64,000 nucleotides of DNA from Coriobacteriia bacterium (lineage in GTDB: Bacteria > Actinomycetota > Coriobacteriia > Anaerosomatales > SLCP01): positions 43,392-107,391 of the forward strand of contig JAUVXE010000007.1 in the NCBI GenBank assembly GCA_030603745.1, written 5' to 3'. The notes below the pieces were generated by a model. That model searched no databases. It saw only the letters and a program-made list of their open reading frames with translations, and was not told the origin of the DNA. Made by a program: the position numbers and the translations under genes. Positions 8,307-36,532 of the stretch are shown here, one piece after another. The stretch's first letter is position 1. Each line of letters starts with the position of its first letter.

Positions 8307-8386
8307 ACGCAACTTCCGTCCCGGAATCGTCGTTCGGCGCGGGATAGCCGGTCCCTCCGCCGAGGACCCTCACGACAGTATACCGT

Positions 8387-9967: not shown

Positions 9968-9998
9968 TCGCTCCCCCTCAGGCGACTGCGCGGGAGGG

Positions 9999-12424: not shown

Positions 12425-12453
12425 CGCGCGAACCCGATCTGGTGCTGTTGCGA

Positions 12454-13641: not shown

Positions 13642-13646
13642 ACCTA

Positions 13647-18345: not shown

Positions 18346-18420
18346 TCATCTGTCTCGCCTCCCTTACCCCGTACACCGATGGGACGGACCCCATTGCCGG
18401 GAGGTCCGCCACAGCACCAG

Positions 18421-18530
18421 TCTCCTTTCCAAGGTCCGGAAGGACGGGAGGCGCCAGGGTTTCCCCGGACACCCTATCGGCCGCGGCGCCATGGCTTTCG
18501 CGGTAGGCGTCCGGGGCTCGGAGACGATGT
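18421..18530 (-). promoter_or_regulatory. Moco/Tuco-type riboswitch aptamer candidate in the 5' leader of the fdnG-like operon
   Basis: The mRNA reads CUCCGAGCCCCGGACGCCUACC...CCGAUAGGGUGUCCGGGGAAACCCUGGCGCCUCCCGUCC...GGAAAGGAGA. It shares five ordered sequence blocks with the tupA leader at 36403..36510. Closing helix: UCUCC...GGAGA. Confidence 0.6.
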
Positions 18531-18576
18531 TCCATTTTCACGGTCCGCGGGACGTTGCCGGTCGATCCCGGGACCC

Positions 18577-18592
18577 TGTAACAATTGTTACA
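18577..18592. promoter_or_regulatory. Perfect 16-bp palindromic operator TGTAACAATTGTTACA (site A)
   Basis: The palindrome is perfect. It lies 15 nt downstream of the predicted -10 box, at roughly +9..+24. Related copies occur at 26076..26091 and 33648..33663. Confidence 0.6.
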
Positions 18593-18607
18593 ATACGCTC
18601 ACTCGCA

Positions 18608-18636
18608 AGATTATCCCGACCGCCCGACCCTGTCAA
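18608..18636 (-). promoter_or_regulatory. Sigma-70/SigA-type promoter for the fdnG-like/omcS-like operon
   Basis: The minus strand reads TTGACA-gggtcgggcggtcggga-TAATCT, a consensus -35, a 17-nt spacer and a good -10. It sits in the only low-GC intergenic stretch upstream of the riboswitch. Confidence 0.6.
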
Positions 18637-18694
18637 CACTCAGCGGACAGGCGGTCGAGACCTTGTCATCCTTCATTCCCCACACTCCGGCGGC

Positions 18695-20239
18695 CTACTC
18701 CCGGCCACCCTGCTCGGCGTCGCTCAGGTACTGCTCGATGAAGAGCCGCGCGTCATAGGCGTCCACGCCCAGCGCGCGCGCCGCGACGGCCAGCGCGGCG
18801 TCCTCGGTGCAGAGCCGCTTGGTGGTCCGGGCGAGCACGAGCATCAGTGCCTCGTCCCGGGTCACCCCGACCCGCTTCATCAGGTCGCGCACGTCGGACT
18901 CGGAGTGCTTGACCAGCGTGATCATCTCGTCGAGACGCACCCCGTCGAGCTCACGGCCGGCGTAGGTCGCGGCATGCTCCTCGGGAGCGATCCAGCGCCA
19001 GCGCTTGCGCGACGCGGCCTCGGCGAGCAGTCCGGCCTCCGCCATCGCCACCAGGAAGTCCTCGGTCACCGCGAACTTCCGGCGGCGCAGGAGGAGCAGG
19101 AGGGGCAGCAGAAGGAGCGGGCTCAGGCAGAGCGCCCACTGGGAGGGCGTCTCGGGCAGCGCGTCGGGCACGAGCGGCACCGGCTCGGGCCAGCCCCACA
19201 CCTGCACCTGATGGTTGAGGCGGTCGGTCACGAAGATCCGCGTGCGGCGGTCGATCGCGAGGTCGTTCGCGTAGCGGAACTGCCCGGGGCCGATCCCGCT
19301 CTGGCCGAACCCGGTGATCCGCTCACCGCCTGACTGGTAGATGTCGACCTGGTGCGCGAGCGCGTCGGCGATGTAGATGCGGTCCTCGGCGTCGATGTCC
19401 ATGCCGCGCGGGATACCGGAGGTCCGCATGATGCGGTCGAACTGCCCGTTCAGGTCGAAGACCTGGACGCGGCGGTTGTTGCTGTCGGATACGTAGATCT
19501 CGTCACCCATGACGAGCACGTCGTTGGGGAAGTAGAAGCGCCCGGGGAGTTGCGAGATCTCGTCGGCCTGTGCGAACGCGCCGAACCGCCGGAGCTCCTG
19601 ACCGTTCTCGTCGAAGACGATGACCTGGTGGAGCTCCACGCGACCGACATCGGTGACGTAGAGGTTGTCGTTCTCATCGAACCCGAGGCCGAGAGGGCCC
19701 CACAGGCGCGCCTCCTCAGGATCGGCGGGGACGACCTTGCGCAAGAAATCGCCATCGAGCGTGAACACGTAGATCGCGCGGTGGCGGCGGTCGGTGACGA
19801 AGAGCTCGTCTTTGCTGTTGATCGCGAGGAAGACCGGGGTGCCGAGCTCCGTGTTCTCGCCGTCGGCGATCTCGTTGAAGGTGAACAGGTAGTCGCCGTC
19901 CACCGTGTAGACACGCACGACGCGCGACGCGGAGTCGGTGACGTAGACCCGGTCGTCACGGCTGACCTCGACGCCGATCGGCGCGGTGAGCGCGTTCTCT
20001 CCGGCGGGACCCGAGATCGAGTAGAGATAGCGCGGCGGATCGACCTGCTCGTCGAAGGTCCGCCCGAGGCCGGGGATCGGCAGGGTGCGGTTCACCGAGA
20101 AGTAGTAGATGGAGTAGAGCACGAGCGCGAGGAGCGCCAGCAGAAGCGCGAGGGCGACCCACTTCTTCCACGCGGCACGGCCGGCGTCCGCGCGGCCGAA
20201 CGAGGCCCGTTCCGGTTGCGTCTGATGATCCATCGACAC
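18695..20239 (-). CDS. Membrane-spanning NHL-repeat beta-propeller protein with conserved cytoplasmic C-terminal domain (paralog 2)
   Basis: 514 aa with an N-terminal TM (WVALALLLALLALVLYSIYYF). NHL blades follow: VYVTDSASRVVRVY, LFVTDRRHRAIYVF, LYVTDVGRVELHQVIVF, IYVSDSNNRRVQVF, IYIADALAHQVDIY, IFVTDRLNHQVQVW. A second TM (LCLSPLLLLPLLLLL) precedes a C-terminal domain ending ...LCTEDAALAVAARALGVDAYDARLFIEQYL. Confidence 0.85.
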   Translation of the reverse strand: MSMDHQTQPERASFGRADAGRAAWKKWVALALLLALLALVLYSIYYFSVNRTLPIPGLGRTFDEQVDPPRYLYSISGPAGENALTAPIGVEVSRDDRVYVTDSASRVVRVYTVDGDYLFTFNEIADGENTELGTPVFLAINSKDELFVTDRRHRAIYVFTLDGDFLRKVVPADPEEARLWGPLGLGFDENDNLYVTDVGRVELHQVIVFDENGQELRRFGAFAQADEISQLPGRFYFPNDVLVMGDEIYVSDSNNRRVQVFDLNGQFDRIMRTSGIPRGMDIDAEDRIYIADALAHQVDIYQSGGERITGFGQSGIGPGQFRYANDLAIDRRTRIFVTDRLNHQVQVWGWPEPVPLVPDALPETPSQWALCLSPLLLLPLLLLLRRRKFAVTEDFLVAMAEAGLLAEAASRKRWRWIAPEEHAATYAGRELDGVRLDEMITLVKHSESDVRDLMKRVGVTRDEALMLVLARTTKRLCTEDAALAVAARALGVDAYDARLFIEQYLSDAEQGGRE

Positions 20240-20245
20240 TCCTCG

Positions 20246-21256
20246 TCAGTCTCTCAGGCGTTCGACGGCCGCCGAGGCGGTCTCGTCGTTCGGGTCGATC
20301 TCGAGCACCTTGCGCCACGTCACGAGCGCGGACTCCGGGTTCCCGAGCTCCTCGTGCAGCTCGGCGGCGATGCGACCCGCCTCCGCGAGGCCCCGGTCGA
20401 GGGCGAACGCGATGCGAGCCTCGGCAAGGGCGCCTTCCGGGTCGGCGGGGCGCAGCGAGCGGGCGCGCTCCAGGCGCTCGGTCGCGCTTCCCTCGGCGGC
20501 GATCTTCGCGAGCTCGTCGCGGGGCTCGTCGCGGCCGGGTGGCGCGTGGTCCGCCGAGGTGCGGAAGTGCTCGGCGGCGCCGGCGATGTCGCCCTCCTCG
20601 AGCAAGAGCAGGCCGAAGTCGTAGTTCGCCTCGGGCATGATCGGGTCGAACATGATGGCGTTCTGCAGGTAGAGGCGCTGATTGGAGTCCGAGCCGAGGC
20701 GCCCGTAGGCGACCGAGAGCGCGTAGTGCGTGTCCGAGGCGCTCCGGCGGATCCGCAGCGCCTCGCGCAGATAGGCGACGGCGTCCTCGTAGCGGCCGAG
20801 CTCGATGTAGGTCACGCCGAGCTGGTAGTAGGCGACCTCGAGGCGGGTGTCGAGCATCGCGTACTCGCTGCCCCCGAGCTGGTCGATGACGGTGAGCCAG
20901 TACTCCTCGGCGGTCTCCCACTCGCCCTGGTACATCGCGACCAGCGCGAGGCCGGAGAGCGCGCTCGGATGGTCGGGGTGGATCTCGAGCGCGGCGTTGA
21001 ACTGCTCGACCGCCTCGCGCAGCCGGCCGGACGCCGCGAGGGCCTCGGCGAGCAGGAGACGGAGCTCCGCGTCGTCAGGGTTCTCGCGGACGGCCTCGAT
21101 GAGGTTGTCGACCGCACGCGACGCCGGCTGCGCACGGCGTTCCTGCAGCTGGTAGGCGGTCACCGTGTAGGCGAGGTAGATGAGTGCGACGAGCAGCAGG
21201 GCGACGACGGACTTGAGCGCCACGTCGAGCCAGCGTATGTCGGATCCGAATCTCAC
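20246..21256 (-). CDS. Membrane-anchored TPR-repeat protein
   Basis: 336 aa with an N-terminal TM (VVALLLVALIYLAYTV). It contains multiple TPR-like A/L/Y-rich 34-mers, for example AEALAASGRLREAVEQFNAALEIHPDHP and YQLGVTYIELGRYEDAVAYLREAL. Confidence 0.8.
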   Translation of the reverse strand: MRFGSDIRWLDVALKSVVALLLVALIYLAYTVTAYQLQERRAQPASRAVDNLIEAVRENPDDAELRLLLAEALAASGRLREAVEQFNAALEIHPDHPSALSGLALVAMYQGEWETAEEYWLTVIDQLGGSEYAMLDTRLEVAYYQLGVTYIELGRYEDAVAYLREALRIRRSASDTHYALSVAYGRLGSDSNQRLYLQNAIMFDPIMPEANYDFGLLLLEEGDIAGAAEHFRTSADHAPPGRDEPRDELAKIAAEGSATERLERARSLRPADPEGALAEARIAFALDRGLAEAGRIAAELHEELGNPESALVTWRKVLEIDPNDETASAAVERLRD

Positions 21257-21306
21257 GCGCGCCTCGTTTCTGTGCGGTCGAGGTGGTACGGGGGGTCAGA
21301 GCGCGG

Positions 21307-22902
21307 CTAGAACCGCATGTCGGTATGGCAGCGGCGACACAGCTGTGAACCGGGCCAGGGCGCGATCTGGATGTTGCGGAGATCGAGCGCGCCGTGGCAG
21401 TCATAACAGATACGCAAGTCGTGTGCCTGAGTCTCGAACTGGTGCACACCTACATCACGAACACGCGCGATCGTGAAGCCGACGTGGCAGTCGTCACAGA
21501 TGTAGGGACGGCCCACGCGCTCTTCGACCTCGAAGTGCACGGCGTGGGTGACGAGCGCCATGTTCTGGATGTCGGTAGGCGGTTCGGTGCGCATCTCCTC
21601 GTGGCAGTCGACGCAGTTGGGCTGGAGGAGCTCGGTGCTCCGCAGGCCCTGGTGGTGGCACTCCTGGCACGACGCGCGGTCGGTGTGGCAGACCTTGCAG
21701 TCGTCGCTCGGGTAGCCGTTGGCCGCGTGCCGCGCGAGCCAGTCGGTCGGGTGCGGCATGGGCGTCTGATGGCACCGCTCGCACGACGCCGAGGTATGGC
21801 AGATCGAGCACGCCCCTTCCCCGCCGAGGAACCCGGCCCCGTGCTCCTGCATCCACTCGGGCGTCAAGTGGTCGTCGGGGACGATCTGCTCGCTCGTGGA
21901 GCCGTCGGCCAGCACCCGCTCTCCCCGGTGACACTCCGAGCACAGCGACGACGCGTGGCACATGGTGCACTCGATGATCTTCTCGTTGGCCGGCTCCGCG
22001 TGCTCCCGGGCGATGAACGCGGGCGTGTGGTCGGCCGGCATGAGCTCGAAGTCGGCGGTGTGGCAGGCGAGACACTCCTCGGTGGCCACCTCGCCCTGGG
22101 CGGCGTGCTGGAGGCTGTGGCAGCGGTAGCACGAGAGCATGTCGGGGATGACGGTCCCGTCGGGGCTGTGGGGGAACGACTCGTGGCACGCCTGGCACCG
22201 GTAGTCGCGCGCGATGTGGACGCCGTGCGTGAAGATGAGGCCGGGCTGCTCGCCCGCGTCGATGTCCGGGTGGCAGAAGACGCACTGTCCCATCGTCGCC
22301 TCGCCCGTGGGGTCGACGGTGACCGACGGCCGCGGCTCGGGCACGGGGATCGTGCGCAGGTAGACCGGGGGCACGGGCGCGGTGTCGAGCCCGAGCTCGC
22401 GGTGGCAGGAGTCGCAGTCGAGGCGCGCGTCGTGGCAGAGCATGCACTCGTTCGTGCCGCCCCGCTCCACAGCGAGCGCGTGGGGCTCCTCGGCCCAGGT
22501 CTCGACGTGGGTCGCGGGCCTGAGCTCGAAGGCGGGCGTGTGGCAGTCCTCGCACGTGCCGGTCGCCAAGATGCCCTGGGGGCCGTGCACGAGGCCGTGA
22601 CAGGCGAAGCAGGTCTGCATCGGCGGGCTGTAGGTGTTGCCCGCCTCGTGGGCCGGGCGCACGTGGCACGACGTGCACGCGACCGTGAGGTGCGCCCCGT
22701 GGCTGAAGATGAGCCCGGGGGAGCGGGACTCGGCGATACGCGCGTGGCAGGCGGCGCAGTTCGACGCCCTGACCTCGGCGGTCAGGTCGATCTCACCCGT
22801 GGTCTCGCGGCCGATGCCGGAGAGCGGGCCCGCAAAGGCGAAGGCGGTCGCCAGGAGGACGACCGCCGCGCCTGCTATGAGAGCCTTGCGCGTGCGCTGC
22901 AT
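21307..22902 (-). CDS. Membrane-anchored 20-heme c-type cytochrome built from repeated multi-heme modules
   Basis: 531 aa with 20 CxxCH motifs by my count. Four are closely paired doublets (CMLCHDARLDCDSCH, CTMCHASSLCSECH, CSICHTSASCERCH, CKVCHTDRASCQECH). An N-terminal anchor or signal is present (ALIAGAAVVLLATAFAFA). Confidence 0.9.
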   Translation of the reverse strand: MQRTRKALIAGAAVVLLATAFAFAGPLSGIGRETTGEIDLTAEVRASNCAACHARIAESRSPGLIFSHGAHLTVACTSCHVRPAHEAGNTYSPPMQTCFACHGLVHGPQGILATGTCEDCHTPAFELRPATHVETWAEEPHALAVERGGTNECMLCHDARLDCDSCHRELGLDTAPVPPVYLRTIPVPEPRPSVTVDPTGEATMGQCVFCHPDIDAGEQPGLIFTHGVHIARDYRCQACHESFPHSPDGTVIPDMLSCYRCHSLQHAAQGEVATEECLACHTADFELMPADHTPAFIAREHAEPANEKIIECTMCHASSLCSECHRGERVLADGSTSEQIVPDDHLTPEWMQEHGAGFLGGEGACSICHTSASCERCHQTPMPHPTDWLARHAANGYPSDDCKVCHTDRASCQECHHQGLRSTELLQPNCVDCHEEMRTEPPTDIQNMALVTHAVHFEVEERVGRPYICDDCHVGFTIARVRDVGVHQFETQAHDLRICYDCHGALDLRNIQIAPWPGSQLCRRCHTDMRF

Positions 22903-22911
22903 GCCGTGAGC

Positions 22912-24165
22912 TTACCCCCGGCCTCTCAGTGCGCGCCACCAGCGGATCACCGGGTTGGCGCTCTGCACCTCGTACCGTCCGTGGATCAGCGAGGCGCTCT
23001 GCTCGATGAACGACTCGCCCGAGCCCCAGTGGCAGCCCTCGGTGCCGCAGGTGTCCACCGCGTTGACGGGGTAGACCATCGAATCGGGGTCGGCCACCGC
23101 CCTCACGTCGTGCGAACCGTGGCAGTCCCAGCACGACGGCGCGTCGGCGGCGCCGCGCTTGTAGGCCCGGCCGTGGTAGTAGTCGTCGTAGTTCTCCCAC
23201 TCGGCCGCGTGGCACACGCCGCACATCTGCTCGGAGGCGAAGTGGAGTTGCCGACGGGCCGCCTCGGTGTCGAGCCTCGCGATGGAGTGGCCGCCGTGGC
23301 ACGAACCGCAGGTGGCCGAGGAGTAGTCCCCCTCGGCGATGAGCTCGGCGTGGATCGAGCCGGCGTACTCCTCGGCGGAGGTCGAGTGCTCGTGGCAGGC
23401 GGCGCAGGCCAGTCCGGCGTTCACGCGCCAGACCGGCGTGGCGTCGGGGCGGTCGTGGTAGTTGAAGTCCACGTGGCACTCGACGCAGGTGTTGTCGCGG
23501 TGCGCGGTGCGGTCGAGCCCGGTCACGTGGAGCGAGCGGGTCGCCCCGCCGTCGGACTTGGCGAGGTTCGGGTCGCCGTGACAGGCGAGGCAGCCGTTCT
23601 CCACGTCGTAGGTGAACTCCTCGGCGGTGCGCCACTCGACGCCGACCGCCCGGTGGCACTCGTCGCAGTCGGTGCGCGTGTGGCACATCATGCAGCGGGT
23701 GCGCAGCTCGGTCAGCGAGGGCTCGACGTGCGGCGTCTCGGCCCAGTCGGGCGTGTGGCTCTCCGGCCGCATGCGTCCGGTATAGGCGCCGTGGCACTTC
23801 TCGCACTCGCCGGTCGCGATGGTGCCCATTGGCCCGTGGCGCAGGTCGTGACAGTTCCAGCAGTCCTTCATGGTGGGCTTCACCGTGCCGGCCGGGCTGT
23901 GCGGGAAGACCGTGTGGCAGCTGCTGCACGCGTAGAGCATGTGCGACGCGTGACGGAAGATGACCCGCGGGTCCTTTCCGTCCGCGATGGTGCCGTGACA
24001 GACCTTGCAGGTGCTGCCGTAGACCGGCGCACCCGTGTCGACCTCGACCGTGCCCCCCTGGGCGAACGCGGGTGCGGCGAACGCGAGCATCACGATGCAC
24101 GCGAGCGCTGCCGCCACGATCGCCGAGACGTGGATGCCGGTCCGCGCCTCGATCCTTAGGATCAT
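22912..24165 (-). CDS. Secreted 13-heme c-type cytochrome
   Basis: 417 aa with 12 CxxCH motifs plus CGTEGCH (CX4CH). The signal peptide is AAALACIVMLAFAAPAFA. The first six hemes form the same module as in the 20-heme protein. The C-terminal part is homologous to the 7-heme protein (YDDYYHGRAYKRGAADAPSCWDCHGSHD). Confidence 0.9.
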   Translation of the reverse strand: MILRIEARTGIHVSAIVAAALACIVMLAFAAPAFAQGGTVEVDTGAPVYGSTCKVCHGTIADGKDPRVIFRHASHMLYACSSCHTVFPHSPAGTVKPTMKDCWNCHDLRHGPMGTIATGECEKCHGAYTGRMRPESHTPDWAETPHVEPSLTELRTRCMMCHTRTDCDECHRAVGVEWRTAEEFTYDVENGCLACHGDPNLAKSDGGATRSLHVTGLDRTAHRDNTCVECHVDFNYHDRPDATPVWRVNAGLACAACHEHSTSAEEYAGSIHAELIAEGDYSSATCGSCHGGHSIARLDTEAARRQLHFASEQMCGVCHAAEWENYDDYYHGRAYKRGAADAPSCWDCHGSHDVRAVADPDSMVYPVNAVDTCGTEGCHWGSGESFIEQSASLIHGRYEVQSANPVIRWWRALRGRG

Positions 24166-24213
24166 CGTCCCCTACCCTTCCTGTCAGCTGAACGGGCGTC
24201 CCCTCGCCCGGAC

Positions 24214-25098
24214 CTACCTTCCGAAGATCCCGGCGATCGCCGAACGCACCCGCTGGAACAGGGAGTAGAGCGGGTTCGCCTCGAGCACGTCGCGCTGCCC
24301 GTGGATCAGCTCCGCGTAGGCGACGTAGTCCACGTTGGGATCGGTGTGGCACCCGGGAGCGGTGCACGTCTCGGTGAGCCTCGTCTCATGGACCATCGAG
24401 TCACGGTCCGAGGACGGGCGGATGTCGTGCCAGCCGTGGCAGTCCCAGCACGCCGGGGCGTCTTCGGCGCCCCGCTTGTAGGCGCGGCCATGGTAGTAGT
24501 CGTTGTAGCTCTCCCAGTAGTCCTCGTGGCAGCGGCCGCAGACCTCCCAGCCGTTCGCGTGAAGCGCGGCGCGGCCCTCATCGTCGATCTCGACGATGTC
24601 GTGCGCGCCGTGACAGCTGCTGCAGATCGGCTTCTCCGCCGCGTCCGGACCCGGCACGCCGTTGCCGTTCCCGTTGACCTCGATGCGGTGGACCCCCTGT
24701 CCGACCTCGAAGTTCTGGTCCTGGTGACAGTTCTTGCAGGCCGACCCGGCCTCGCGGCGCCAGTCCTGGGACGCCGTGGTGTGCGGCGCGGTGAAGGCGA
24801 AGTCGATGTGGCACCCGGCGCACTGCACGGCGGCGTGCGGACCGGCCTCGAGCTCGGCCGCGTCGACGTAGTAGCTCACGAGACGGTCCTCCCGCAGGCG
24901 GATGAGGTTCTCATCGCCGTGGCAGACGAGACAGCCGGCCTTGGCCGCCGTGGGCAGCGTGAAGTCGACGTCGTAGCCGTCGAACTCGATGGTGTGGGTC
25001 CCGACCGTGCTCTCTTGCGCGTATGCCAGTGCGGGAAGCGCGATCAGGACGGCGAGGACCGTCAGCGTGATCGTCAGTGTCCGGTGCGCTGGTGTCAT
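24214..25098 (-). CDS. Secreted 7-heme c-type cytochrome, partner of the b-type cytochrome
   Basis: Uses the internal ATG 25098 of track ORF 24214..25338. The signal peptide is LTVLAVLIALPALAYA. There are 6 CxxCH motifs plus CTAPGCH. Its start overlaps the cyt b stop by 4 nt (ATGA). Confidence 0.85.
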   Translation of the reverse strand: MTPAHRTLTITLTVLAVLIALPALAYAQESTVGTHTIEFDGYDVDFTLPTAAKAGCLVCHGDENLIRLREDRLVSYYVDAAELEAGPHAAVQCAGCHIDFAFTAPHTTASQDWRREAGSACKNCHQDQNFEVGQGVHRIEVNGNGNGVPGPDAAEKPICSSCHGAHDIVEIDDEGRAALHANGWEVCGRCHEDYWESYNDYYHGRAYKRGAEDAPACWDCHGWHDIRPSSDRDSMVHETRLTETCTAPGCHTDPNVDYVAYAELIHGQRDVLEANPLYSLFQRVRSAIAGIFGR

Positions 25099-25940
25099 TC
25101 TGCCTCTCCGGTCGAGGGGCTCAGTGCCGGGCTCCCGTGGGCCTCTCCGTGTCCGTGGGAGTCGTGGTGGTCGGCCCCGCCCAGTCCGAAGAAGCTCTGG
25201 AAGGCGGGGAAGTCCTCCGTCATCGACAGGTAGGCGTGCACCGTGGTGAGGATGATGAACAGCCAGTTGATGATGTAGTGGGCGGTACGCGCGTACCATC
25301 CGGCGAGGTCGGTCGAGCCCACGAGCGCTCCGAGCCACCAGCTCAGCAGGACCTCGCGCGGGCTGTAGCCGAAGATCATCGGCGTGGCCACGAGCGCGAA
25401 GCCCGTGTAGGCCTGCAGGATCATCAGCGGCACGAAGAGTGTGTAGGTGCCCTTCTGCATCACGTTGTACTTCCCGAGGTGTGGCTTGGAGGACTTCACG
25501 AAGATGTAGTACAGCACTACTTTCGGCGCGGTCACTATGTCTTCCTTCGTGATCGCGAACTCTTTGTAGTCACGCTGCCGCGAGAAGAAGGCGTACCACA
25601 AGCGCCACACGAGGTTGATCGTGACGATGATCATGAAGACGTAGTGCACGTAGCGCATCGGGGTACGGCCACCGTCGAAGAACGGGAACCGGATGTACAT
25701 CCCCGAGATGCCGAGCGCGAACATCGAGAAGACGTGCTGGAAGTGGAGGAACTTCGGGAGGAACGGGACGGGCGGTCCCTCGTGGTGGGGCCACTGCTTA
25801 CCGATGAAACGCTTCTTGACGCGTCCGGTGAGCACGTTGCCGATGAAGTGGCCGGACAGGCCGAGCACCACGACCACGTACAGGCTCGTGAAGACGACGT
25901 CCAGCCATACGTTGAACCCGGTCAGACTGATCTCCGACAC
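25095..25940 (-). CDS. FdnI/HydC-family membrane b-type cytochrome (putative menaquinol-interacting subunit)
   Basis: 281 aa and polytopic. It carries the family-typical GKYNVMQKGTYTLFVPLMILQAYTG (compare E. coli FdnI GKYNAGQK). Conserved His residues sit in TM helices (HFQHVF, YVHYVF, TAHYIINW, TTVHAYL). GTG start follows a GGGAGTAGGGG RBS. Confidence 0.8.
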   Translation of the reverse strand: MSEISLTGFNVWLDVVFTSLYVVVVLGLSGHFIGNVLTGRVKKRFIGKQWPHHEGPPVPFLPKFLHFQHVFSMFALGISGMYIRFPFFDGGRTPMRYVHYVFMIIVTINLVWRLWYAFFSRQRDYKEFAITKEDIVTAPKVVLYYIFVKSSKPHLGKYNVMQKGTYTLFVPLMILQAYTGFALVATPMIFGYSPREVLLSWWLGALVGSTDLAGWYARTAHYIINWLFIILTTVHAYLSMTEDFPAFQSFFGLGGADHHDSHGHGEAHGSPALSPSTGEAE

Positions 25941-26075
25941 CCCCTACTCCCTGTCACGCGCATCGCACGCTGCGACGACGCGAAACCTCGAGAACCCGTC
26001 CCGCCCTGTCGCGTCGATCCGCTCGCGCGGCAGAACCGCCGCGCTATGCCGGACGCGAGCGGTCGTGGGTGAGTT

Positions 26076-26091
26076 CGTAACAGCAGTTACA
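26076..26091. promoter_or_regulatory. Palindromic operator CGTAACAGCAGTTACA (site C)
   Basis: GTAAC-N4-GTTAC core identical to sites A and B. It lies about 135 nt upstream of the cyt b start, in the 200-bp intergenic gap. Confidence 0.45.
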
Positions 26092-26142
26092 TTTGACCAT
26101 AGCCCCCCGTGAGAGGCAAGCGGGAACCGCCCTCGGCGGCCG

Positions 26143-26391
26143 TCAGACGTCCTCGAACGAAGCGGACGCCGTGGGCTCGAGATCCGCCCTGCCGAGGAGC
26201 TCCAGCGCCCGGTCCACCTCGGCGGGCTCAAGGCGCAACGCGATCCCGCAGAGCCCCGTCCCGAGGGTCTTGGGGGCCGGCACGGGGACGACGTCGATCC
26301 CGAGGTCTTTCAGGAGCTGTTCCGCCGAGAGCGCCCGGTGGGTCGACCCGAACCCGAGCACGGTGAACAGGCGCGGCTCGCGCACGGTCAC
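26143..26391 (-). CDS. DUF3343-like small protein (putative S/Se carrier)
   Basis: GTG 26391 overlaps the desulfurase stop (GTGA). The 82-aa product begins VTVREPRLFTVLGFGSTHRALSAEQLLKDLGIDVVPVPAPKTLGTGLCGIALRL, the typical DUF3343 pattern as I recall it. Confidence 0.65.
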   Translation of the reverse strand: MTVREPRLFTVLGFGSTHRALSAEQLLKDLGIDVVPVPAPKTLGTGLCGIALRLEPAEVDRALELLGRADLEPTASASFEDV

Positions 26392-27557
26392 GATGCCAGC
26401 TCCCGGAGTGCCGAAAGCACGGTGTCGACCTGCTCTGCGGTGTTGCCCCACCCCACGCCGAAACGCACCGCGCCGCACTCAAGCGTTCCCACGGTCTCGT
26501 GCGCCCAGGGGGTGCAGTGCAGCCCGGCCCGTGCCGCGATGCCGTATGCGCGGTCGAGCTCGTAGGCGATCCTGTCGGAGTCGAGGGTGTCGTGCACGAC
26601 GGTGACGATCGGCACCCTCGGCACGCCCGGAGGCGGGCCGAGCACTCGGAAGCCCTCGATCGCGAGCACCCCCTCGTGCAGGCGACGGACGAGCTCGGCC
26701 TCGGCGGCACGGAGCGTGGCGCCCTCGGCCTTAAGGAGGGCCGCGGCGGCGCCGAGTCCGACGATCCCGGGCGTGTTGGCGGTACCGGCCTCGTAGCGGT
26801 CGGGACGCTCGGCAGGCATCTCGAGCGAGTCGGAGGCTCCTCCGCCGGTGCCGCCCTCGATCTGCACCTCGAGCTCGAGGCCCGGGACGAGGTAGAGCAG
26901 CCCGATCCCCTGCGGGCCGAGCATGCCCTTATGGCCCGAGGTCGCGTAGGCGTCGGGGGCGAGCGAGGCGAGGTCGACGTCGAGGTGCCCGGCGCCCTGG
27001 GCGCCGTCCACGAGCATGAGCGCGCCGTGCTCGTGCGCGATGTCGGCCAGGTCGCCGATGAGCTGGACCGTGCCGGTCAGGTTCGAGGCGTGCTGGCAGA
27101 CGACCGCGCGGGTGGGCGCGGCGCCGACCTCGCGCTCGACGTCGGCCGGGTCGACGAGCCCGGTGGGATCCGCCTTCACCACCACGACCTCCACGCCGGC
27201 GCGGGCGAGGTGCGCGAGGGGACGTGCGACGGCGTTGTGCTCCATGGAGCCGACCACCACCCGGTCGCCCGGTCGCAACGAGCCCTTGAGCATGAGGTTG
27301 CACGCGGCCGTGCAGCCGGACTGGAAGAGCAGGTCGCGGGTGTCTGGCACGCCGAGGAGCGTCGCACAGGCGCGACGGGCCTCGAGGATCGCGCGCGACG
27401 AGGCGAGCGCCAGCGCGTAGGCCCCGCGCCCCGGGTTGCCGCCGAGTTCGGTGAGCGCGCGCACCACCGCGTCGACGACGGGCCCCGGCTTGGGCCACGA
27501 GCTCGCGCCATGGTCGAAGTAGGCCACCGGCGGGCGGGTCTCCTCGGCGGGCGACAC
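26388..27557 (-). CDS. Class-V aminotransferase-fold cysteine desulfurase / selenocysteine lyase family protein
   Basis: GTG 27557 lies 2 nt after the mogA stop. The PLP-lysine motif is ATSGHKGMLGPQGIGLLY. The N-terminus YFDHGASSWPKPGPVVDAV is typical for the family. The upstream part of the track ORF is artefact. Confidence 0.8.
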   Translation of the reverse strand: MSPAEETRPPVAYFDHGASSWPKPGPVVDAVVRALTELGGNPGRGAYALALASSRAILEARRACATLLGVPDTRDLLFQSGCTAACNLMLKGSLRPGDRVVVGSMEHNAVARPLAHLARAGVEVVVVKADPTGLVDPADVEREVGAAPTRAVVCQHASNLTGTVQLIGDLADIAHEHGALMLVDGAQGAGHLDVDLASLAPDAYATSGHKGMLGPQGIGLLYLVPGLELEVQIEGGTGGGASDSLEMPAERPDRYEAGTANTPGIVGLGAAAALLKAEGATLRAAEAELVRRLHEGVLAIEGFRVLGPPPGVPRVPIVTVVHDTLDSDRIAYELDRAYGIAARAGLHCTPWAHETVGTLECGAVRFGVGWGNTAEQVDTVLSALRELAS

Positions 27558-27559
27558 CG

Positions 27560-28045
27560 CTAGTGGCCCCCGCCCGCGATCATCTCGACGGCGTGCGTGA
27601 GCTGGTCGGCGATGAAGGAGAACGACTCGCGGGCGGCCTTCTCGCTGCCGGGAAGGTTGACGATGAGCGTGGTGCCGCGCAGGCCGGCGGTCCCGCGGGA
27701 GAGCATGGCGCGCGGGGTGACCTTGAGGCTCTCGGCCCGGATGTGCTCGGCGATGCCGGGAGCGCGCCGGTCCGAGACCCGGTCGGTGACCTCGGGCGTG
27801 ATGTCGCGCCGGCTGAAACCGGTGCCACCGCAGGTCAGAACCACGTCGGCCTCGTCGAGGTCGGCCATCTGGATGAGCGAGTCGGCGATGCACTCGTCCT
27901 CGTCAGGGCAGACGTGGTAGGCGATGACGAGCCACCCGCGCTCCTCCACGAGCTCGATGAGCGCCTGGCCGGCGGTGTCCTCGGCGCCACCCGCGGCGCG
28001 GGTGTCCGAGCAGGTCAGGATCCCGACCCTCAAGTCGCGTCCCAC
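27560..28045 (-). CDS. MogA/MoaB-family molybdopterin adenylyltransferase-like protein
   Basis: 161 aa with VGILTCSDTRA...VVLTCGGTGFSRRDITPE...LPGSEKAA, the MogA/MoaB signature. Confidence 0.85.
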   Translation of the reverse strand: MGRDLRVGILTCSDTRAAGGAEDTAGQALIELVEERGWLVIAYHVCPDEDECIADSLIQMADLDEADVVLTCGGTGFSRRDITPEVTDRVSDRRAPGIAEHIRAESLKVTPRAMLSRGTAGLRGTTLIVNLPGSEKAARESFSFIADQLTHAVEMIAGGGH

Positions 28046-28046
28046 G

Positions 28047-28550
28047 TCACTCCTTCCGGTCGCACGTCCCGTCGCCGAGGGCGAGGACCGTGATGGCGTC
28101 GCCGGCGCGGACGTCTCCGGGCTCGCGCACGACCGCGAAGATGCCCTCGCGGGGCATGACGCAGTCGCCGGCCTGGTAGTAGATGGCGCACTTAGTATGG
28201 CAGACCTTCCCGATCTGGCTCACCTCGAGCACCGCCTCCTCGCCGACGCGGAACGTGGTGCCGATCGGCATCGCGAGGAGGTCGATCCCCTCGGTGGTGA
28301 TGTTCTCGGCGAAGTCGCCTGCGGCGACGTCGAGTCCCTTGGCGACCATCGAGTCGATCGACTCTTGCGCGAGCAGGCTCACCTGCCGGTGCCAGTCGCC
28401 GGCGTGCGCGTCACCCGCGAAGCCGCGGTCGAACACGAGGGTGCCCTCCTCACCGCGGGTCTTGCGCACCGTCTTCTTCTCGGAAAGGTTCACCGACACG
28501 ACCTTCCCGGGACCGGGGAGCGCAGGGGTGGCGGTCTCGTTCTCGTTCAT
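28047..28550 (-). CDS. MOSC-domain protein
   Basis: 167 aa with [10 protein letters not shown]...[14 protein letters not shown]...[18 protein letters not shown], a MOSC beta-barrel-like pattern. Located within the Moco operon. Confidence 0.7.
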
Positions 28551-29107
28551 CGTTCCTCCTCGCGGGTCCAGCGGCCGGATGCGCCGCCCTCCTTCTCGAG
28601 CAGCATGACCTCGCCGAGGACCATGCCCCGGTCGACGGCCTTACACATGTCGTAGAGCGTCAGCCCGGCCACCGCGGCGGCCGTGAGCGCCTCCATCTCG
28701 ACGCCGGTCGGCCCGGTGGTCTCGCAGACCGCGACGATCCGGACCGCGGCGAGGCCGTCGCCGGTCGGATCGGGCTCCTCGGCGGTGAGGTCGACCGAAG
28801 CGTGCGTGAGCGCGATCGGGTGACACATCGGGACGAGGTCCGCGGTGCGCTTCGAGGCCATGATGCCGGCGATGCGCGCGGTGGCGAATACGTCTCCTTT
28901 GGGCGCGCGGCCCTCGACGATCATCGCGAGCGTCTCGGGACGCATCGTGATGCGAGCGGAGGCCACGGCGCGCCGGTGCGTGTCGGGCTTGGCGCCCACG
29001 TCGACCATGCGGGCCTCGCCACGCTCGTCGAGGTGCGTGAGCCGCCCGTGGGGGCCGGCGGCACCGGCCGCGGCGGGCGGCACGGCGGGAGGTTCGGTGG
29101 CGCTCAT
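28547..29107 (-). CDS. moaC: Cyclic pyranopterin monophosphate synthase MoaC
   Basis: Uses the internal ATG 29107 of track ORF 28547..29377. Motifs: [16 protein letters not shown]...[28 protein letters not shown]...[23 protein letters not shown]. Confidence 0.9.
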
Positions 29108-29114
29108 CGGGCGG

Positions 29115-30137
29115 TCACCCTCCGATCTGGGACATGCCGCGCGCGGTGCCGACCCGGGAGCTGTGGCTCTCGGGCTTGGTCGCGAGCGCGGTGCGGATGA
29201 GGTCACGGACATCGGCGTCGGTGCCGCCTCGCAGCACCGAGCGCACGTCGATCTCCTCGTCGGAGAAGAGGCAGGCGCGCAGCCGGCCGTCGGCGGTGAG
29301 GCGCAGGCGGTTGCACTCGCCGCAGAAGTGGTGCGAGAGCGGCGTGATGACGCCCACGGTCCCCGGGGCGCCCGCATAGCGGTAGTAGCGCGCCGGCCCC
29401 CAACCGCCCGGGGCGTCGCCGCGCCGGACGGGCTCGAGCGCGCCGAGGCCGGCCGCGGTCCCCTCGGCGGTGAGGCGCTCGAGGATCTCCTCGGCGGAGA
29501 CGTGGTCGGCGCGCGTCCAGCCCTCTCCGGCCGGCTCGCACTCCCCGCCCTCGGACGCGCCGCCCACCGGCATGTACTCGATGAAGCGCACGTGCACCGG
29601 GCGGTCGAGCGTGAGCCGCGCGAAGGCGAGCAGGTCCTGGTCGAGGCCGCGGACCACGACCGCGTTCACCTTGACGGGGCCCATGCCTGCCGCGAACGCG
29701 GCGTCGAGGCCCGCCAGCGCGTCGGCGAGCTTGCCGCCGCGCGTGACGCGCTCGAAGACCGCGGGGTCGAGCGAGTCGAGCGAGATGTTGACGCGCGTGA
29801 GGCCCGCCTCGACGAGCGGGGCGGCGTAGCGCGCGAGCAGCGTGCCGTTGGTGGTCAGCGCGATCGCCTCGAGCCCGGTGAGCGCGCGGAGCCGCCGGAC
29901 GTGGCCGACGACCCCCTTGCGCACGAGCGGCTCGCCGCCGGTCAGGCGGATCTTGGAGATGCCCTCCCCGACCGCGATCGCCGCGAACCGCTCGATCTCC
30001 TCGAGCGAGAGGATCTCGTCGTGGTCCTTCCACGCGACGCCCGCCGCGGGCATGCAGTAGACGCACCGCAGGTTGCACCGGTCGGTGAGCGAGATGCGCA
30101 GGTAGTCGATGCGCCTGCCGAACGCGTCGATCGCCAC
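29115..30137 (-). CDS. moaA: GTP 3',8-cyclase MoaA (radical SAM)
   Basis: 340 aa. Contains the radical-SAM [10 protein letters not shown] motif and the C-terminal [19 protein letters not shown] second-cluster motif. Confidence 0.95.
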
Positions 30138-30706
30138 TACGCCCCGCCCCCCGTCGCCGTCGGGCCCGTGCCGGTCCGCCGCGACCGCGCCTCGGCCCCG
30201 CCGAGGAACCGCTCCTCGATGAGGTCCGCGACGCCCGCCGCGTCGTCGAGCGCGAAGACCGGCGCCGGAGAGCCCGCGAGCGCCTCGACGTCGGTGACGA
30301 GGGCGAAGAGCTCCTCGGCGGCGCAGATCGGTTCGGCCGAGCGCGCCGCGCGCACCACCTCGACGAGCACCGGGGCGGTGGCGCGGAACCCCTCGGTCAG
30401 CAGGAGGTCGAGTCCTTCGGCGGCGGCGAGCGACGCGAGGTCGGCCAGCGAGCGCTCGCCGTCCACCCGCCGGATCACGCCGAGGCGGTTCGGGGCGCTC
30501 ACCATCGTCATGACCGCCCCGGCCCGCTCGTGGCGCCAGGTGTCCTTGCCGGGCACGTCGATGTCGGTCTCGTGCGCGTGATGCTTCGCGGTGCCGACCC
30601 GCCAGCCGCGGGAGGCGAGCTCGGCGATCACGCCCTCGAGCAGGGTCGTGCGGCCCGACTTACTCTTGCCCACCACGCTGACCACCGGAAGCGCCAGCCC
30701 GCTCAT
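30137..30706 (-). CDS. mobB: Molybdopterin-guanine dinucleotide biosynthesis adapter MobB
   Basis: Uses the internal ATG 30706 of track ORF 30137..30787. Contains a P-loop (VVGKSKSGRTTLL) and AKHHAHETDIDVPGKDTWRH. Confidence 0.8.
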   Translation of the reverse strand: MSGLALPVVSVVGKSKSGRTTLLEGVIAELASRGWRVGTAKHHAHETDIDVPGKDTWRHERAGAVMTMVSAPNRLGVIRRVDGERSLADLASLAAAEGLDLLLTEGFRATAPVLVEVVRAARSAEPICAAEELFALVTDVEALAGSPAPVFALDDAAGVADLIEERFLGGAEARSRRTGTGPTATGGGA

Positions 30707-30707
30707 C

Positions 30708-30923
30708 TCAGAAACAGCCGAGGTCACAGTTGTGGACCTTGATCCCGATCGAGTCGGCCGCCGCGCCCGCCACCTTGTAGGGGACACCGCTGTCCTCGGC
30801 GAGCTTCCTCAGCACCGGACAGGTGATGCGGCCTTCGCGGGCCTTCTCCCGCACCGCCTCTGTCAGCTCGGGCGTGACCTGCTCGGCCCACCTGGGGTCG
30901 ATCTGCTTGGGTGAACCGCTCAC
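30708..30923 (-). CDS. Small conserved-looking protein of unknown function in Moco operon (71 aa, C-terminal CDLGCF)
   Basis: The ORF fits exactly between moeA (4-nt overlap) and mobB (1-nt gap). Codon usage matches its neighbours. I do not recognise the family. Confidence 0.5.
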   Translation of the reverse strand: MSGSPKQIDPRWAEQVTPELTEAVREKAREGRITCPVLRKLAEDSGVPYKVAGAAADSIGIKVHNCDLGCF

Positions 30924-32167
30924 GGCGATCCCTCCTCCATGTCGAGTCGGACGACCTCGGCCGGGGTGCCGGCCGCGAAGAACCCTTCACCTTGCGGGAG
31001 CACGAGCAGGCAGTTGCCCTTGTGGGCGGCGGTCAGCAGCGCCGAGGACTGCGAGCCGGAGAGCGCGACCACGAGCCCGCCGTCCTCCCCGCGCTCGAGC
31101 CGGGCGCGCAGGTAGTAGCGGCGGTCCTGTTTCTTCTTGACGTCGTGCGCGAGCGTGGCGACCGAGCGCGGGCGGTCGAGCGCGGTGTGCCCCTGCATGT
31201 AGCGCAGTGCGGGACGCACGAACACCTCGAAGCCCACGTAGGTCGAGGTCGGGTTGCCCGGAAGGCCGAAGAAGGGCACCCCGTCGATGGAGCCGAGCGT
31301 CTGCGGGTTGCCCGGCCGCATCGCGACCTTGCAGAACTCCATCTCGCCGAGCTCCTCGAGCACGGGCTTGACGAAGTCGAAGTCGCCCACGCTCACCCCG
31401 CCGCTCGTCACGATGAAGTCGGCCTCGGCGGCGGCGCGGGCGAACGCCTCCCGGGTCGCGTCGGGGTCGTCGCGCACGATCGGGAAGCGCAGCGGCTCGC
31501 CGCCCGCGGCGAGGACCTGGGCGGCGATCGAATAGGAGTTCGAGTTGCGGATCTTGCCCGGGCCGGGCTGCTCGGCGACCTCGACGAGCTCGTCGCCGGT
31601 CGAGAGCACCGCCACACGGGGGCGGCGGTGGACCTCGACCGTCGCATGCCCCGCCGAGGCGGCCAGTCCCACCGCGGCCGGGCCGACGACCTCGCCCGCG
31701 AGCAGCACCGCGTCTCCCGCGGCGACCTCCTCGCCCCTCAGGCGGACGTTCTCGCCGGGCGCGACGGTGCGGCTCACGTGGACCGTGCCGCCCGTGGAGC
31801 CCGCGGCCTCGCCGGGGGTCGTGTACTCGACCATCACCACCGAGTCCGCCCCGGGAGGCATGGGCGCGCCCGTCATGATCCGCGCAGCCTGTCCGGGACC
31901 GACCTCGAGGTCGGAGTGGTCGCCGGCGGCGATGTGGGAGACGACGTCGAGCGTGACCGGCACGCCGTCGACTGCCGTGGCGAGATCGGCGGCGCGCACC
32001 GCGTAGCCGTCCATCGCCGAGTTGTCGAACGGCGCGATGTCGATGTCGGAGCGCACGTCGGCGGCGAGCACCCTGCCGAGGGCCTCCAGGATCGGCACGC
32101 GCTCGGTCGCGAGGACTCGGCAGCGCGCGAGCACGAGGTCGCGGGCCTGCTCCACGGTGAGCGTCAT
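30920..32167 (-). CDS. moeA: Molybdopterin molybdenum/tungsten transferase MoeA
   Basis: Uses the internal ATG 32167 of track ORF 30920..32503, with an ATGA overlap on the upstream stop. Motifs: IAPFDNSAMDGYAVRAADL, VLSTGDELV, IVTSGGVSVGDFDFV, LPGNPTS. Confidence 0.9.
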   Translation of the reverse strand: MTLTVEQARDLVLARCRVLATERVPILEALGRVLAADVRSDIDIAPFDNSAMDGYAVRAADLATAVDGVPVTLDVVSHIAAGDHSDLEVGPGQAARIMTGAPMPPGADSVVMVEYTTPGEAAGSTGGTVHVSRTVAPGENVRLRGEEVAAGDAVLLAGEVVGPAAVGLAASAGHATVEVHRRPRVAVLSTGDELVEVAEQPGPGKIRNSNSYSIAAQVLAAGGEPLRFPIVRDDPDATREAFARAAAEADFIVTSGGVSVGDFDFVKPVLEELGEMEFCKVAMRPGNPQTLGSIDGVPFFGLPGNPTSTYVGFEVFVRPALRYMQGHTALDRPRSVATLAHDVKKKQDRRYYLRARLERGEDGGLVVALSGSQSSALLTAAHKGNCLLVLPQGEGFFAAGTPAEVVRLDMEEGSP

Positions 32168-33588
32168 CGGGCATCCTCCTCGGCGGGGTTCGTGACGATG
32201 CGTTCGGGGTGCGTGTAGACGGTGATCTTGCCGCCGCGCGCATACCCTGCGAGCGTGATGCCGAGTTCGGCGGCGATCTCGGCGGCCAGGTCGGTGACCG
32301 CGGTGCGGGAGACGACCACCGGCACCCCGGCCTTGGCGGCCTTGACGGCCATCTCGTAGGAGATGCGGCCGGTGGAGAGCAGCACCGCGTCGCGCGCGGG
32401 GACGCGATCGAGCCACGCCCGGCCGAGGAGCTTGTCGAGCGCGTTGTGGCGCCCCACGTCCTCCCGCACGAGCAGCAGCTCGCCGCCGCGCGCCAGCCCG
32501 CACGCGTGCATGCCGCCGGTGTCCCGGTACGACGTGGCCGCGCGCGCCATCTGCCCCATGAGGTCGTAGAGGTCCTGGCTGTCGACCCGCAGCCCGCTCT
32601 CGACGCGGGCGAGCCCGCGGGCGTGCCCGACCGAGGAGAACGTCACGCCCTTGCCGCAGCCGCTCGTGACGTAGCGGGTCTTGTAGACCATGTCGTCGGG
32701 GACCGCCTCGGCGGTGTTCGCGTAGACGAGGCCGCGCTTGTGGTCGACGTCGATGGAGGCGAGCGCGTCGCGGTCGGCCATCAGCCCCTCGGCGACGAAG
32801 AAGCCCGCCGCCATCTCCTCGAGGTCGTCGGGCGTGGCCTGCACCGTCGCGACCTCGACGTCGTTCATGTAGAGCGTGATCGGGCGCTCGGAGGGCATGC
32901 CGCGGGGGCGGCGCGTTCCGACCTCGATCACCGAGACGACGACCCGCTCGGCGTCGCGCGCGTCACGCCGCTTCGGCGCCTGCTCGCGGGCGTCGGCGAG
33001 CTCCTCGGGCGTGTTCACGTTCAGGAAGCTCTTGAGCCCGGGGTCGACGCCACGCAGCGAGTCGACCGGGACCTCGACGACCGTGACCTCGCGAAAGACC
33101 GCGACGAGGCGGCGTCGGCCGCTCGCGAGCACCGTGCGGGCCACCGGCAGACACGCGCGGGAGTAGAGGGCGAGCAGCGGTTCGGGACCCTTGTCGGTCA
33201 CCGGTACGACCACGTCGGCGCCGTCGCGGGCCTCCCACAGCGCACGGACGACCGCGGCCGAGACGTGCGGCATGTCGGCGGCCACGGCGAGCACCCACTC
33301 GTCGGGTGCCTCGGCGAGCGCGGTGACGAGCCCGCCGAGGGGGCCCTGATAGGGTATCTCGTCGGTGAGGACCCGCACGTCGGACGGCAGGCCCGCGTCG
33401 GCGAGCGCCTCGGGACGGTTCGTGACGACGATCGTGTGGGCGCAGACCTCGCCGACCGCGGCGGCGACACGGGCTACGAGCGCCTCGCCATCCACGGGCA
33501 GGAGCGTCTTGTCCACACCCATCCGCATGGAGCGGCCACCGGCCAGCACCGCGGCGGTACAGGGAAGGATGGCGGGTTCGGGGGTCAC
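32164..33588 (-). CDS. MobA-FdhD fusion (Moco guanylyltransferase fused to formate dehydrogenase sulfurtransferase/accessory protein)
   Basis: The N-terminal half is MobA-like: AAVLAGGRSMRMGVDKTLLPV...AADMPHV...FLNVNTPEEL. The C-terminal half is FdhD-like: YVTSGCGKGVTF...GGMHACGL...EDVGRHNALDKLLG...VVSRTAVTDLA. GTG 33588 follows a GAGAGGA RBS. Confidence 0.85.
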   Translation of the reverse strand: MTPEPAILPCTAAVLAGGRSMRMGVDKTLLPVDGEALVARVAAAVGEVCAHTIVVTNRPEALADAGLPSDVRVLTDEIPYQGPLGGLVTALAEAPDEWVLAVAADMPHVSAAVVRALWEARDGADVVVPVTDKGPEPLLALYSRACLPVARTVLASGRRRLVAVFREVTVVEVPVDSLRGVDPGLKSFLNVNTPEELADAREQAPKRRDARDAERVVVSVIEVGTRRPRGMPSERPITLYMNDVEVATVQATPDDLEEMAAGFFVAEGLMADRDALASIDVDHKRGLVYANTAEAVPDDMVYKTRYVTSGCGKGVTFSSVGHARGLARVESGLRVDSQDLYDLMGQMARAATSYRDTGGMHACGLARGGELLLVREDVGRHNALDKLLGRAWLDRVPARDAVLLSTGRISYEMAVKAAKAGVPVVVSRTAVTDLAAEIAAELGITLAGYARGGKITVYTHPERIVTNPAEEDAR

Positions 33589-33647
33589 GGATCCAGTCGT
33601 CCTCTCGTCGCCGGCGCGCCGGCCGTCCCGGGCGGAGCGCACCACAT

Positions 33648-33663
33648 TGTAACCATTGTTACA
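33648..33663. promoter_or_regulatory. Palindromic operator TGTAACCATTGTTACA (site B)
   Basis: Differs from site A at 1 position. It lies 60 nt upstream of the mobA-fdhD GTG. Its promoter-distal-to-proximal half overlaps a TACAAT -10-like hexamer on the minus strand. Confidence 0.55.
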
Positions 33664-36395: not shown

Positions 36396-36402
36396 GTATG
36401 GG

Positions 36403-36510: not shown

Positions 36511-36532
36511 CCGCTGAAGCGACCGCACGAAG

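Follow-up and report, generated by a model that had tools for sequence, protein, structure and literature searches.

A palindrome conserved at the heads of electron-donor oxidase and multiheme cytochrome operons in Coriobacteriia is a probable repressor operator

Which protein, if any, reads a palindrome that stands at the head of three operons for anaerobic respiration and cofactor supply, and does it switch them on or off? The question is raised by a 64,000-nucleotide stretch of DNA from a Coriobacteriia bacterium (contig JAUVXE010000007.1, positions 43,392 to 107,391; the whole stretch is called the window here), which has a GC content of ~70% and carries almost all of its genes on the minus strand. 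In it the palindrome GTAAC-N4-GTTAC (GTAACNNNNGTTAC) precedes an operon for a formate dehydrogenase (FDH), an operon for a cytochrome b with multiheme cytochromes, and an operon for Mo/W-cofactor synthesis that begins with a mobA-fdhD fusion gene. An earlier note on this DNA had likened the three sites to the 5-N6-5 sites typical of CRP/FNR-family dimers. On the sequence comparisons set out below, the palindromes are probably the operators of one homodimeric repressor, encoded elsewhere, that would control the donor-oxidase and cytochrome operons.

An exact scan of the window returns three matches (18578-18591, 26077-26090 and 33649-33662), the same three that the earlier note had found, against an expected count of 0, and none of 100 dinucleotide-preserving shuffles yielded any. 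Allowing up to three mismatches to the 16-mer TGTAACNNNNGTTACA adds one weak three-mismatch match in the window, at 4143. Each exact site lies between genes, ahead of one on the minus strand, again as had been claimed:

18577..18592, no strand assigned: putative operator 1, TGTAACAATTGTTACA, heading the FDH operon; the 16-bp palindrome is perfect
26076..26091, no strand assigned: putative operator 2, coding strand TGTAACTGCTGTTACG, heading the cytochrome b/multiheme operon
33648..33663, no strand assigned: putative operator 3, coding strand TGTAACAATGGTTACA, ahead of mobA-fdhD, in this genome only

The distance from operator 1 to the FDH gene is 427 nt, with a riboswitch in between, and that from operator 2 to the cytochrome b gene is 143 nt, while operator 3 lies 64 nt upstream of the mobA-fdhD gene and 19 nt past the stop codon of the ABC ATPase gene upstream.

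Is the palindrome kept in relatives? Scanning species-representative genomes with the cytochrome b protein gave 64 related loci (cited below by L numbers), nearly all from metagenome-assembled genomes of uncultured Coriobacteriia, in which cytochrome b identity is 47-83%. Their synteny is conserved and runs from divergent Fur and LysR genes through (transporter), mobA-fdhD, moa, cysteine desulfurase and Se-carrier genes to cytochrome b, the multiheme cytochromes, a TPR and an NHL gene and then the next operon. Across 61 of these loci (0.98 Mb) the exact palindrome occurs 70 times against 0.29 expected, control arrangements of the same composition giving 0-1 matches, and every exact copy stands at one of two orthologous intergenic positions: either (a) 100-200 nt upstream of cytochrome b, or (b) directly after the NHL gene and before the next operon. 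A palindrome at position (b) was found in 39 loci, and the operon behind it encodes a selenocysteine FDH in about half of the loci and otherwise the small and large subunits of a [NiFe] hydrogenase. The consensus extends to TTGTAAC-N4-GTTACAA, the half-site TTGTAAC being present in all 73 exact sites. An unbiased best-match test found two mismatches or fewer at 44 of 62 cytochrome b heads, where the background best is 4-6, and nothing above background at the mobA-fdhD heads of 22 out of 22 other loci, among them the closest relatives, whose proteins are 86% identical.

Non-random occurrence and orthologous conservation thus bear out the view that a shared cis-element marks a regulon, and the phylogenetic footprinting proposed in the earlier note divides its three members: the cytochrome b and FDH sites are kept in relatives, the site ahead of mobA-fdhD in none of the 22, and cofactor synthesis drops out as a conserved member. 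The conserved regulon then comprises an extracytoplasmic donor oxidase, for formate or H2, together with the cytochrome b/multiheme conduit, without cofactor supply. Since the operon partner may be either an FDH or a [NiFe] hydrogenase, the shared signal is unlikely to concern the Mo/W cofactor. Such a regulon would fit the physiology of the cultured OPB41 relatives, which have clustered multiheme cytochromes and use H2 or formate for growth, with Fe(III) or sulfur as acceptors.

Two kinds of imperfect match also recur downstream of cytochrome b. Two-mismatch matches at ~4.4-5.1 kb were rejected as operators, being CxxCH coding sequence or half-sites. An intergenic TGTAAC-TATT-GACACA, consisting of the left half-site and a TTGACA-like hexamer, recurs ~4.8 kb past the cytochrome b start, where the multiheme genes give way to the TPR gene (L009:8018, L010:14790, L024:7724 and L048:14821); it may serve as an internal promoter or be an operator that has degenerated.

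How did a third site come to stand ahead of mobA-fdhD in this genome? In many relatives a TACAAT(GTGAC)-like -10 box is kept shortly past the ATPase stop codon, and the window has the following element:

33646..33651, minus strand: -10-like hexamer TACAAT of the moa operon, overlapping the downstream half of operator 3

The nearest relatives, L001 and L002, carry TGTAAC plus TACAATGT, 3 nt closer together and without the right half-site; relative to them, an indel and substitutions in the window created a GTTACA that overlaps the -10 box, beside the pre-existing half-site. Site 3 therefore looks like a recently gained operator that would bring cofactor biosynthesis into the regulon in this lineage only, a case of regulon growth by the conversion of a promoter's -10 region into an operator.

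What mode of control does the position of the palindrome suggest? Promoters were read from alignments of upstream regions anchored on the palindrome, with transcription starts inferred from consensus; a consensus promoter and terminator scan of the three window regions had given no match under overly strict criteria, and it was the anchored alignments that revealed them. In the relatives a conserved TTGAC(A/G)-17/18-TAnnnT promoter lies directly upstream of the palindrome. Promoter scores of at least 9 out of 12 are reached at 84% of the cytochrome b sites and 56% of the donor-enzyme sites (both types together), compared with 0.9% of random segments. The gap between the end of the -10 box and the palindrome is 3-4 nt at the cytochrome b sites (33 of 44), 5-6 nt at the hydrogenase type and 13-15 nt at the FDH type. 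The corresponding elements in the window are:

18608..18636, minus strand: putative sigma-70-type promoter of the FDH operon, -35 TTGACA (18636->18631), 17-nt spacer, -10 TAATCT (18613->18608), the -10 box ending 15 nt before the palindrome
26096..26101, minus strand: -10-like hexamer TATGGT, ending 4 nt before operator 2

With a conserved near-consensus promoter directly upstream, the palindrome would span or follow the transcription start, extending from about -3 to +13 relative to the inferred start at cytochrome b, +1 to +16 at the hydrogenase and +7 to +22 at the FDH operons. A palindrome placed across or after the start of strong promoters would have the geometry of a repressor operator. 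In the subclade of the window (window 26092-26135; L001, L002 and L005-L007) the cytochrome b -10 box and the 4-nt gap are kept and the -35 box is degenerate, with TTCCCG or a mis-spaced TTGCCT where most relatives have TTGACA; the promoter of this subclade may be weaker or in need of an extra factor.

This geometry bears directly on a CRP/FNR reading of the sites, in which a dimer sensing redox state, NO or CO would switch the three operons on. The resemblance from which the earlier note started holds, as GTAAC-N4-GTTAC is exactly the consensus of the HcpR2 branch of the CRP/FNR family (GTAACnnnnGTTAC; Rodionov et al., 2005, PMC1274295), and in three low-GC metagenome contigs the palindrome stands directly before CRP/FNR genes whose recognition helix reads R-P-S-L-x-R, the E181P signature that has been linked to this motif. 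The position does not agree with activation, however. The palindrome starts 3-15 nt past the -10 box, downstream of a complete and conserved promoter, and not around -41.5 or -61.5, where an activator site would overlap the -35 box or precede it; the anchored alignments of relatives contain no conserved -10-like element 20-30 nt further downstream. The TTGAC(A/G) -35 box is nearly invariant, whereas activator-dependent promoters usually lack a good one. Nor is the core specific to the family: the same promoter-plus-palindrome layout precedes TetR-type as well as CRP/FNR-type genes in other organisms, and bioY and other genes also stand behind the core in metagenome contigs, so that the core motif by itself does not identify the regulator family. 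The clade sequence searched contains no CRP/FNR gene, the window contains no hcp gene, and its fprA gene (45167-46366) has no palindrome nearby. Activation by a CRP/FNR protein is consequently unlikely, while a CRP/FNR protein acting as a repressor falls under the repressor explanation.

Could the palindrome instead work in the transcript, as a 5' hairpin with a 6-bp stem and a 4-nt loop that affects the stability of the mRNA or is bound by an RNA-binding protein? At the FDH heads the transcript probably includes the entire palindrome (about +7 to +22), and a clearly structured hairpin with a CCGGCA loop comes next. Two such hairpins are present in the window:

18549..18569, minus strand: leader hairpin 1, CCGGCA loop at 18561->18556, between operator 1 and the riboswitch
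26036..26062, minus strand: leader hairpin 2, CCGGCA loop at 26052->26047, 23 nt downstream of operator 2

Among loci L001-L061 this hairpin (loop N-CCGGCA-N, or CCGGACA/CCGGTA) is found in 33 of 44 cytochrome b leaders, 19-28 nt downstream of the palindrome, and in 28 of 39 donor-enzyme leaders, compared with 11% of random 90-nt windows. Its stems covary between genomes (on average 5.3 stem pairs, compared with 3.2 when arms are swapped), and it could be a site for an RNA-binding protein, a 5' stabiliser or a pause site. The palindrome, by contrast, has arms that are essentially invariant across 48-83% cytochrome b identity and two operons, and its variants (TGCAAC...GTTACA, ...GTCACA and CGTAAC...) break the pairing without compensation. 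The hairpin could not form at the cytochrome b heads, where the inferred start is within the left arm, and the site-3 palindrome shares positions with the -10 box. We consider a function in the transcript very improbable; the uncompensated variants, together with the cytochrome b start inside the palindrome, favour the reading of this element as DNA by a protein.

Leader RNAs of another kind do accompany the palindrome, at the FDH operon and elsewhere. Two aptamers of the molybdenum-cofactor (Moco)/tungsten-cofactor riboswitch are present in the window:

18406..18535, minus strand: Moco/tungsten-cofactor riboswitch aptamer, Rfam RF01055, 56.3 bits (gathering score 36), in the FDH leader
36388-36514, minus strand: second Moco/tungsten-cofactor riboswitch, RF01055, 56 bits, ahead of the transporter genes (TupA-like protein, permease and TOBE-ATPase)

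The order of operator 1, riboswitch and FDH gene recurs in seven of seven FDH-type relatives. The second riboswitch places the true start of the binding-protein gene below 36388. That the palindrome might belong to the Moco aptamer or its expression platform was considered and set aside, the aptamer occupying 18406-18535 and the palindrome 18577-18592; the palindrome also heads operons without a Moco riboswitch (cytochrome b and hydrogenase), and the transporter operon has the riboswitch and no palindrome. A ModE-like reading, in which molybdate or tungstate is sensed through the palindrome, was rejected on similar grounds: the operator heads hydrogenase and cytochrome operons, the transporter operon is without it, and the riboswitches already sense the cofactor. 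Transcription-factor and riboswitch control would thus be stacked on the metalloenzyme operons of this locus.

In the hydrogenase-type relatives, though not in the window, a conserved leader of 150-200 nt lies between the palindrome and the gene for the [NiFe] hydrogenase small subunit (L010:17611-17781, L013:18374-18564, L021:17920-18083 and 16 further loci of this type). The loop of its 5' hairpin, UUGGAGCCGGCACGAAGA, is invariant, and its downstream segment CGCCRYCUCCACCCGG can pair either with this 5' element or with GGAGGUGGCG, which is followed by a U-run as in a terminator; the terminator stem shows compensatory CG<->AU changes. Searched against Rfam, the leader gave no match even at E<=10. 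It is a candidate for a new riboswitch or attenuator and takes the place of the Moco riboswitch of FDH-type loci.

Might the palindrome be read by the LysR protein encoded nearby (36597-37496, minus strand)? This is the sole regulator consistently linked to the cluster, and its gene is directly upstream of the cytochrome b site in L030 and L049. An even-length 16/18-bp dyad is unlike the T-N11-A box of LysR proteins, however, the site lies downstream of the -10 box with nothing conserved upstream of the -35 box, and the Fur-LysR intergenic regions of 19 loci contain no palindrome (best matches 4-6 mismatches), although LysR types normally autoregulate. The protein also passes the NCBIfam equivalog NF040786, 'selenium metabolism-associated LysR' (279.7 bits, cutoff 250), an assignment that gives it another role. 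Control by this LysR is scarcely credible. The same 19 intergenic regions hold a conserved Fur-family 7-1-7 box, GTGAGAAT-N-ATTCTCAC, which in the window (GTGAGAACCATTCTCAT, 37614-37630) stands at the head of the Fur-like gene that diverges from LysR and adjoins cbiMQO; a Fur-family regulator that responds to Ni/Co probably uses this box as its operator. Lastly, chance or a non-regulatory repeat, such as a mobile-element relic or a restriction-site cluster, is effectively refuted by three copies against an expectation of 0 in the window and 70 against 0.29 in the relatives, all at orthologous promoter positions.

The genes behind the three sites, annotated from Pfam and NCBIfam matches, are arranged as follows:

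14522..18157, minus strand: FDH catalytic subunit, with a TAT signal; best NCBIfam match FDH-N alpha
5265..14507, minus strand: genes that probably continue the FDH operon (4Fe-4S subunit, 6-heme cytochrome, two function-unassigned proteins, NHL-repeat protein, 13-heme cytochrome); operon structure inferred from co-orientation and tight spacing
18695..25940, minus strand: cytochrome b/multiheme operon (cytochrome b, three multiheme cytochromes with 6, 12 and 20 CxxCH, TPR protein, NHL-repeat protein), its gene order kept in nearly all related loci; a probable quinol-to-multiheme conduit
26143..33591, minus strand: Mo/W-cofactor and sulfur/selenium delivery operon (mobA-fdhD, moeA, mobB, moaA, moaC, MOSC, mogA/moaB, cysteine desulfurase/selenocysteine-lyase-like protein, Se/S carrier)

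The FDH is a molybdopterin oxidoreductase with an in-frame TGA (17524->17522) in 'HQARI*HSS' that would be read as selenocysteine. An ABC transporter, whose best matches are tungstate TupA and WtpC (both under their cutoffs), and the LysR gene lie upstream of operator 3, and selA, selB, a selD-like gene and a tRNA-Sec gene (52603-52699) are also in the window. Taken with the LysR type, the Se/S carrier, the lyase-like desulfurase and the selenocysteine FDH, these genes make the window a selenium/tungsten/FDH island. The 398-aa cytochrome with six CxxCH (12454-13650, minus strand), earlier labelled OmcS, gave no sequence match to solved structures at E<=1, which leaves the label and the extracellular wire of the earlier note with no support from sequence. 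A c-di-GMP-II riboswitch (RF03169, 44894-44981, minus strand, 60.5 bits) lies directly upstream of the gene for a 1393-aa DUF11/DUF7507/SdrD-like surface protein (40688-44869).

If the palindromes are repressor operators, as we think probable, the following scheme can be drawn. A repressor would sit across or just past the start of strong sigma-70-type promoters and block initiation or promoter escape until a signal released it. This signal is probably energy- or redox-related, since that is what H2 or formate oxidation and electron export have in common, and it should be something other than the cofactor, which the riboswitches downstream already sense. The regulon would consist of the cytochrome b/multiheme operon and the adjacent donor oxidase, here the selenocysteine FDH and in many relatives the [NiFe] hydrogenase; a third operator, confined to this genome and lying over the -10 box of the mobA-fdhD...moa operon, would tie cofactor supply to FDH expression. 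After derepression, leader RNAs would gate elongation, through the Moco riboswitch at the FDH operon and through the attenuator-like leader at the hydrogenase operons of relatives.

Several observations weigh against this scheme. The promoters and starts are predictions from consensus, the window's own cytochrome b -35 box is poor (3 of 6 positions) and its site-3 promoter scores only 7 out of 12; 18 of 62 cytochrome b heads have no recognisable site. The search for a binding protein yielded no Rex, CRP/FNR or other candidate gene in the window, its 10-kb left extension or the related loci, CRP/FNR genes in particular being absent from the window and all 64 loci. The nearest known operators also disagree in part: the half-site TTGTAAC departs from the Rex half-site TTGTGAA at two of seven positions, 5 and 7, which have been reported as the most conserved and important for binding, and the described targets of HcpR2 are hcp genes and not respiratory ones.

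The searches behind these negatives agree with the earlier note that LysR and Fur-like genes are the sole regulators in the window (Pfam/NCBIfam), that no CRP/FNR gene is among them and that the reader of the palindrome would be encoded outside it. Searches by phmmer and tblastn with CRP, FNR, M. tuberculosis CRP and three Rex sequences as seeds gave no genuine match, tblastn with the three Rex seeds covering 1.87 Mb of sequence. A weak CRP-like match in L050 was rejected as a shadow open reading frame opposite a P-type ATPase gene, and the left flank (L065), with its genes for chemotaxis and the cell wall, encodes no regulator. In a profile search with three HcpR2-like proteins the best 120 matches were all of Bacteroidales type. 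A metagenome scan for promoter plus palindrome gave, among the matches listed, only cytochrome b, FDH and hydrogenase heads for the clade and no regulator gene. Canonical Rex, CRP and FNR boxes are absent from ~1 Mb of clade DNA, a sample confined to this one locus, in which LexA-like one-mismatch matches are present. A literature search with the extended motif TTGTAAC/GTTACAA gave nothing relevant.

On a rough apportionment, the repressor may tentatively be placed among Rex-like proteins or, with equal weight, in some other family, a CRP/FNR protein of the HcpR2 type being slightly more doubtful. Most likely we are dealing with a new regulon of an ordinary and familiar kind, a repressor operator, in an understudied lineage. 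A bolder reading, which we put forward as possible though rather unlikely, is that one lineage-wide repressor, either a Rex re-tuned to TTGTAAC or a recruited HcpR2-type CRP/FNR protein, serves as a master switch for extracellular electron transfer in OPB41-type Coriobacteriia, set over cofactor-sensing leaders that include an undescribed riboswitch-like hydrogenase leader. OPB41/Anaerosomatales and their relatives, of which hardly any are in culture, occur widely in sediments and the subsurface, and little is known about how Gram-positive bacteria regulate extracellular electron transfer. A sharply defined operator kept at cytochrome b identities of ~48-83% provides a practical handle on this regulon: genome scans with it should list all members and would probably reveal an autoregulated regulator gene, and two cultured relatives permit direct tests.

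The arrangement invites comparison with several known systems. In E. coli, fdnGHI and moaABCDE are governed by layers of FNR, ModE and a Moco riboswitch, the factors activating from upstream of the promoter. The layering of transcription factor and Moco riboswitch on FDH and cofactor genes is alike; here, in contrast, one operator, placed at the transcription start and ahead of the riboswitch, also serves hydrogenase and cytochrome operons. TetR operators offer a second likeness, since TGTAAC-N4-GTTACA lies directly downstream of the -10 box before TetR genes in L144, L072 and L094, and TetR proteins act by repression. They are usually local, however, and encoded beside their targets, whereas the palindrome studied here has no TetR gene next to it and is common to two or three separate operons at least.

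The HcpR2 sites are identical to the window palindrome at all ten specified core positions and in spacing, and in the HcpR2-type autoregulatory examples the palindrome is likewise directly downstream of the -10 box. The HcpR2 sites described so far stand before hcp genes for nitrosative stress in Clostridia, Bacteroidetes, Thermotogales and Treponema (PMC1274295), in contrast to the FDH, hydrogenase and cytochrome targets, the high-GC Coriobacteriia and the repression-type position found here; the CRP-linked sites, moreover, mostly lack the outer T...A extension. The Rex operator (ROP), bound by Rex, a repressor that senses NADH/NAD+, and with its consensus TTGTGAA-N4-TTCACAA (PMC6391272), shares with the extended palindrome an 18-bp length, the 7-4-7 layout, the outer TTGT...ACAA and five of seven half-site positions, and it too lies over the core promoter and serves repression. 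Hydrogenases and respiratory components belong to known Rex regulons, and the cultured OPB41 relative Parvivirga hydrogeniphila has a Rex-type gene inside a multiheme-cytochrome cluster, MCL4079323-32. The Rex regulon of C. bescii, which takes in hydrogenases, a cluster for tungstate transport, pyranopterin and W-enzymes, and a class V aminotransferase, provides a close functional parallel to the regulon described here.

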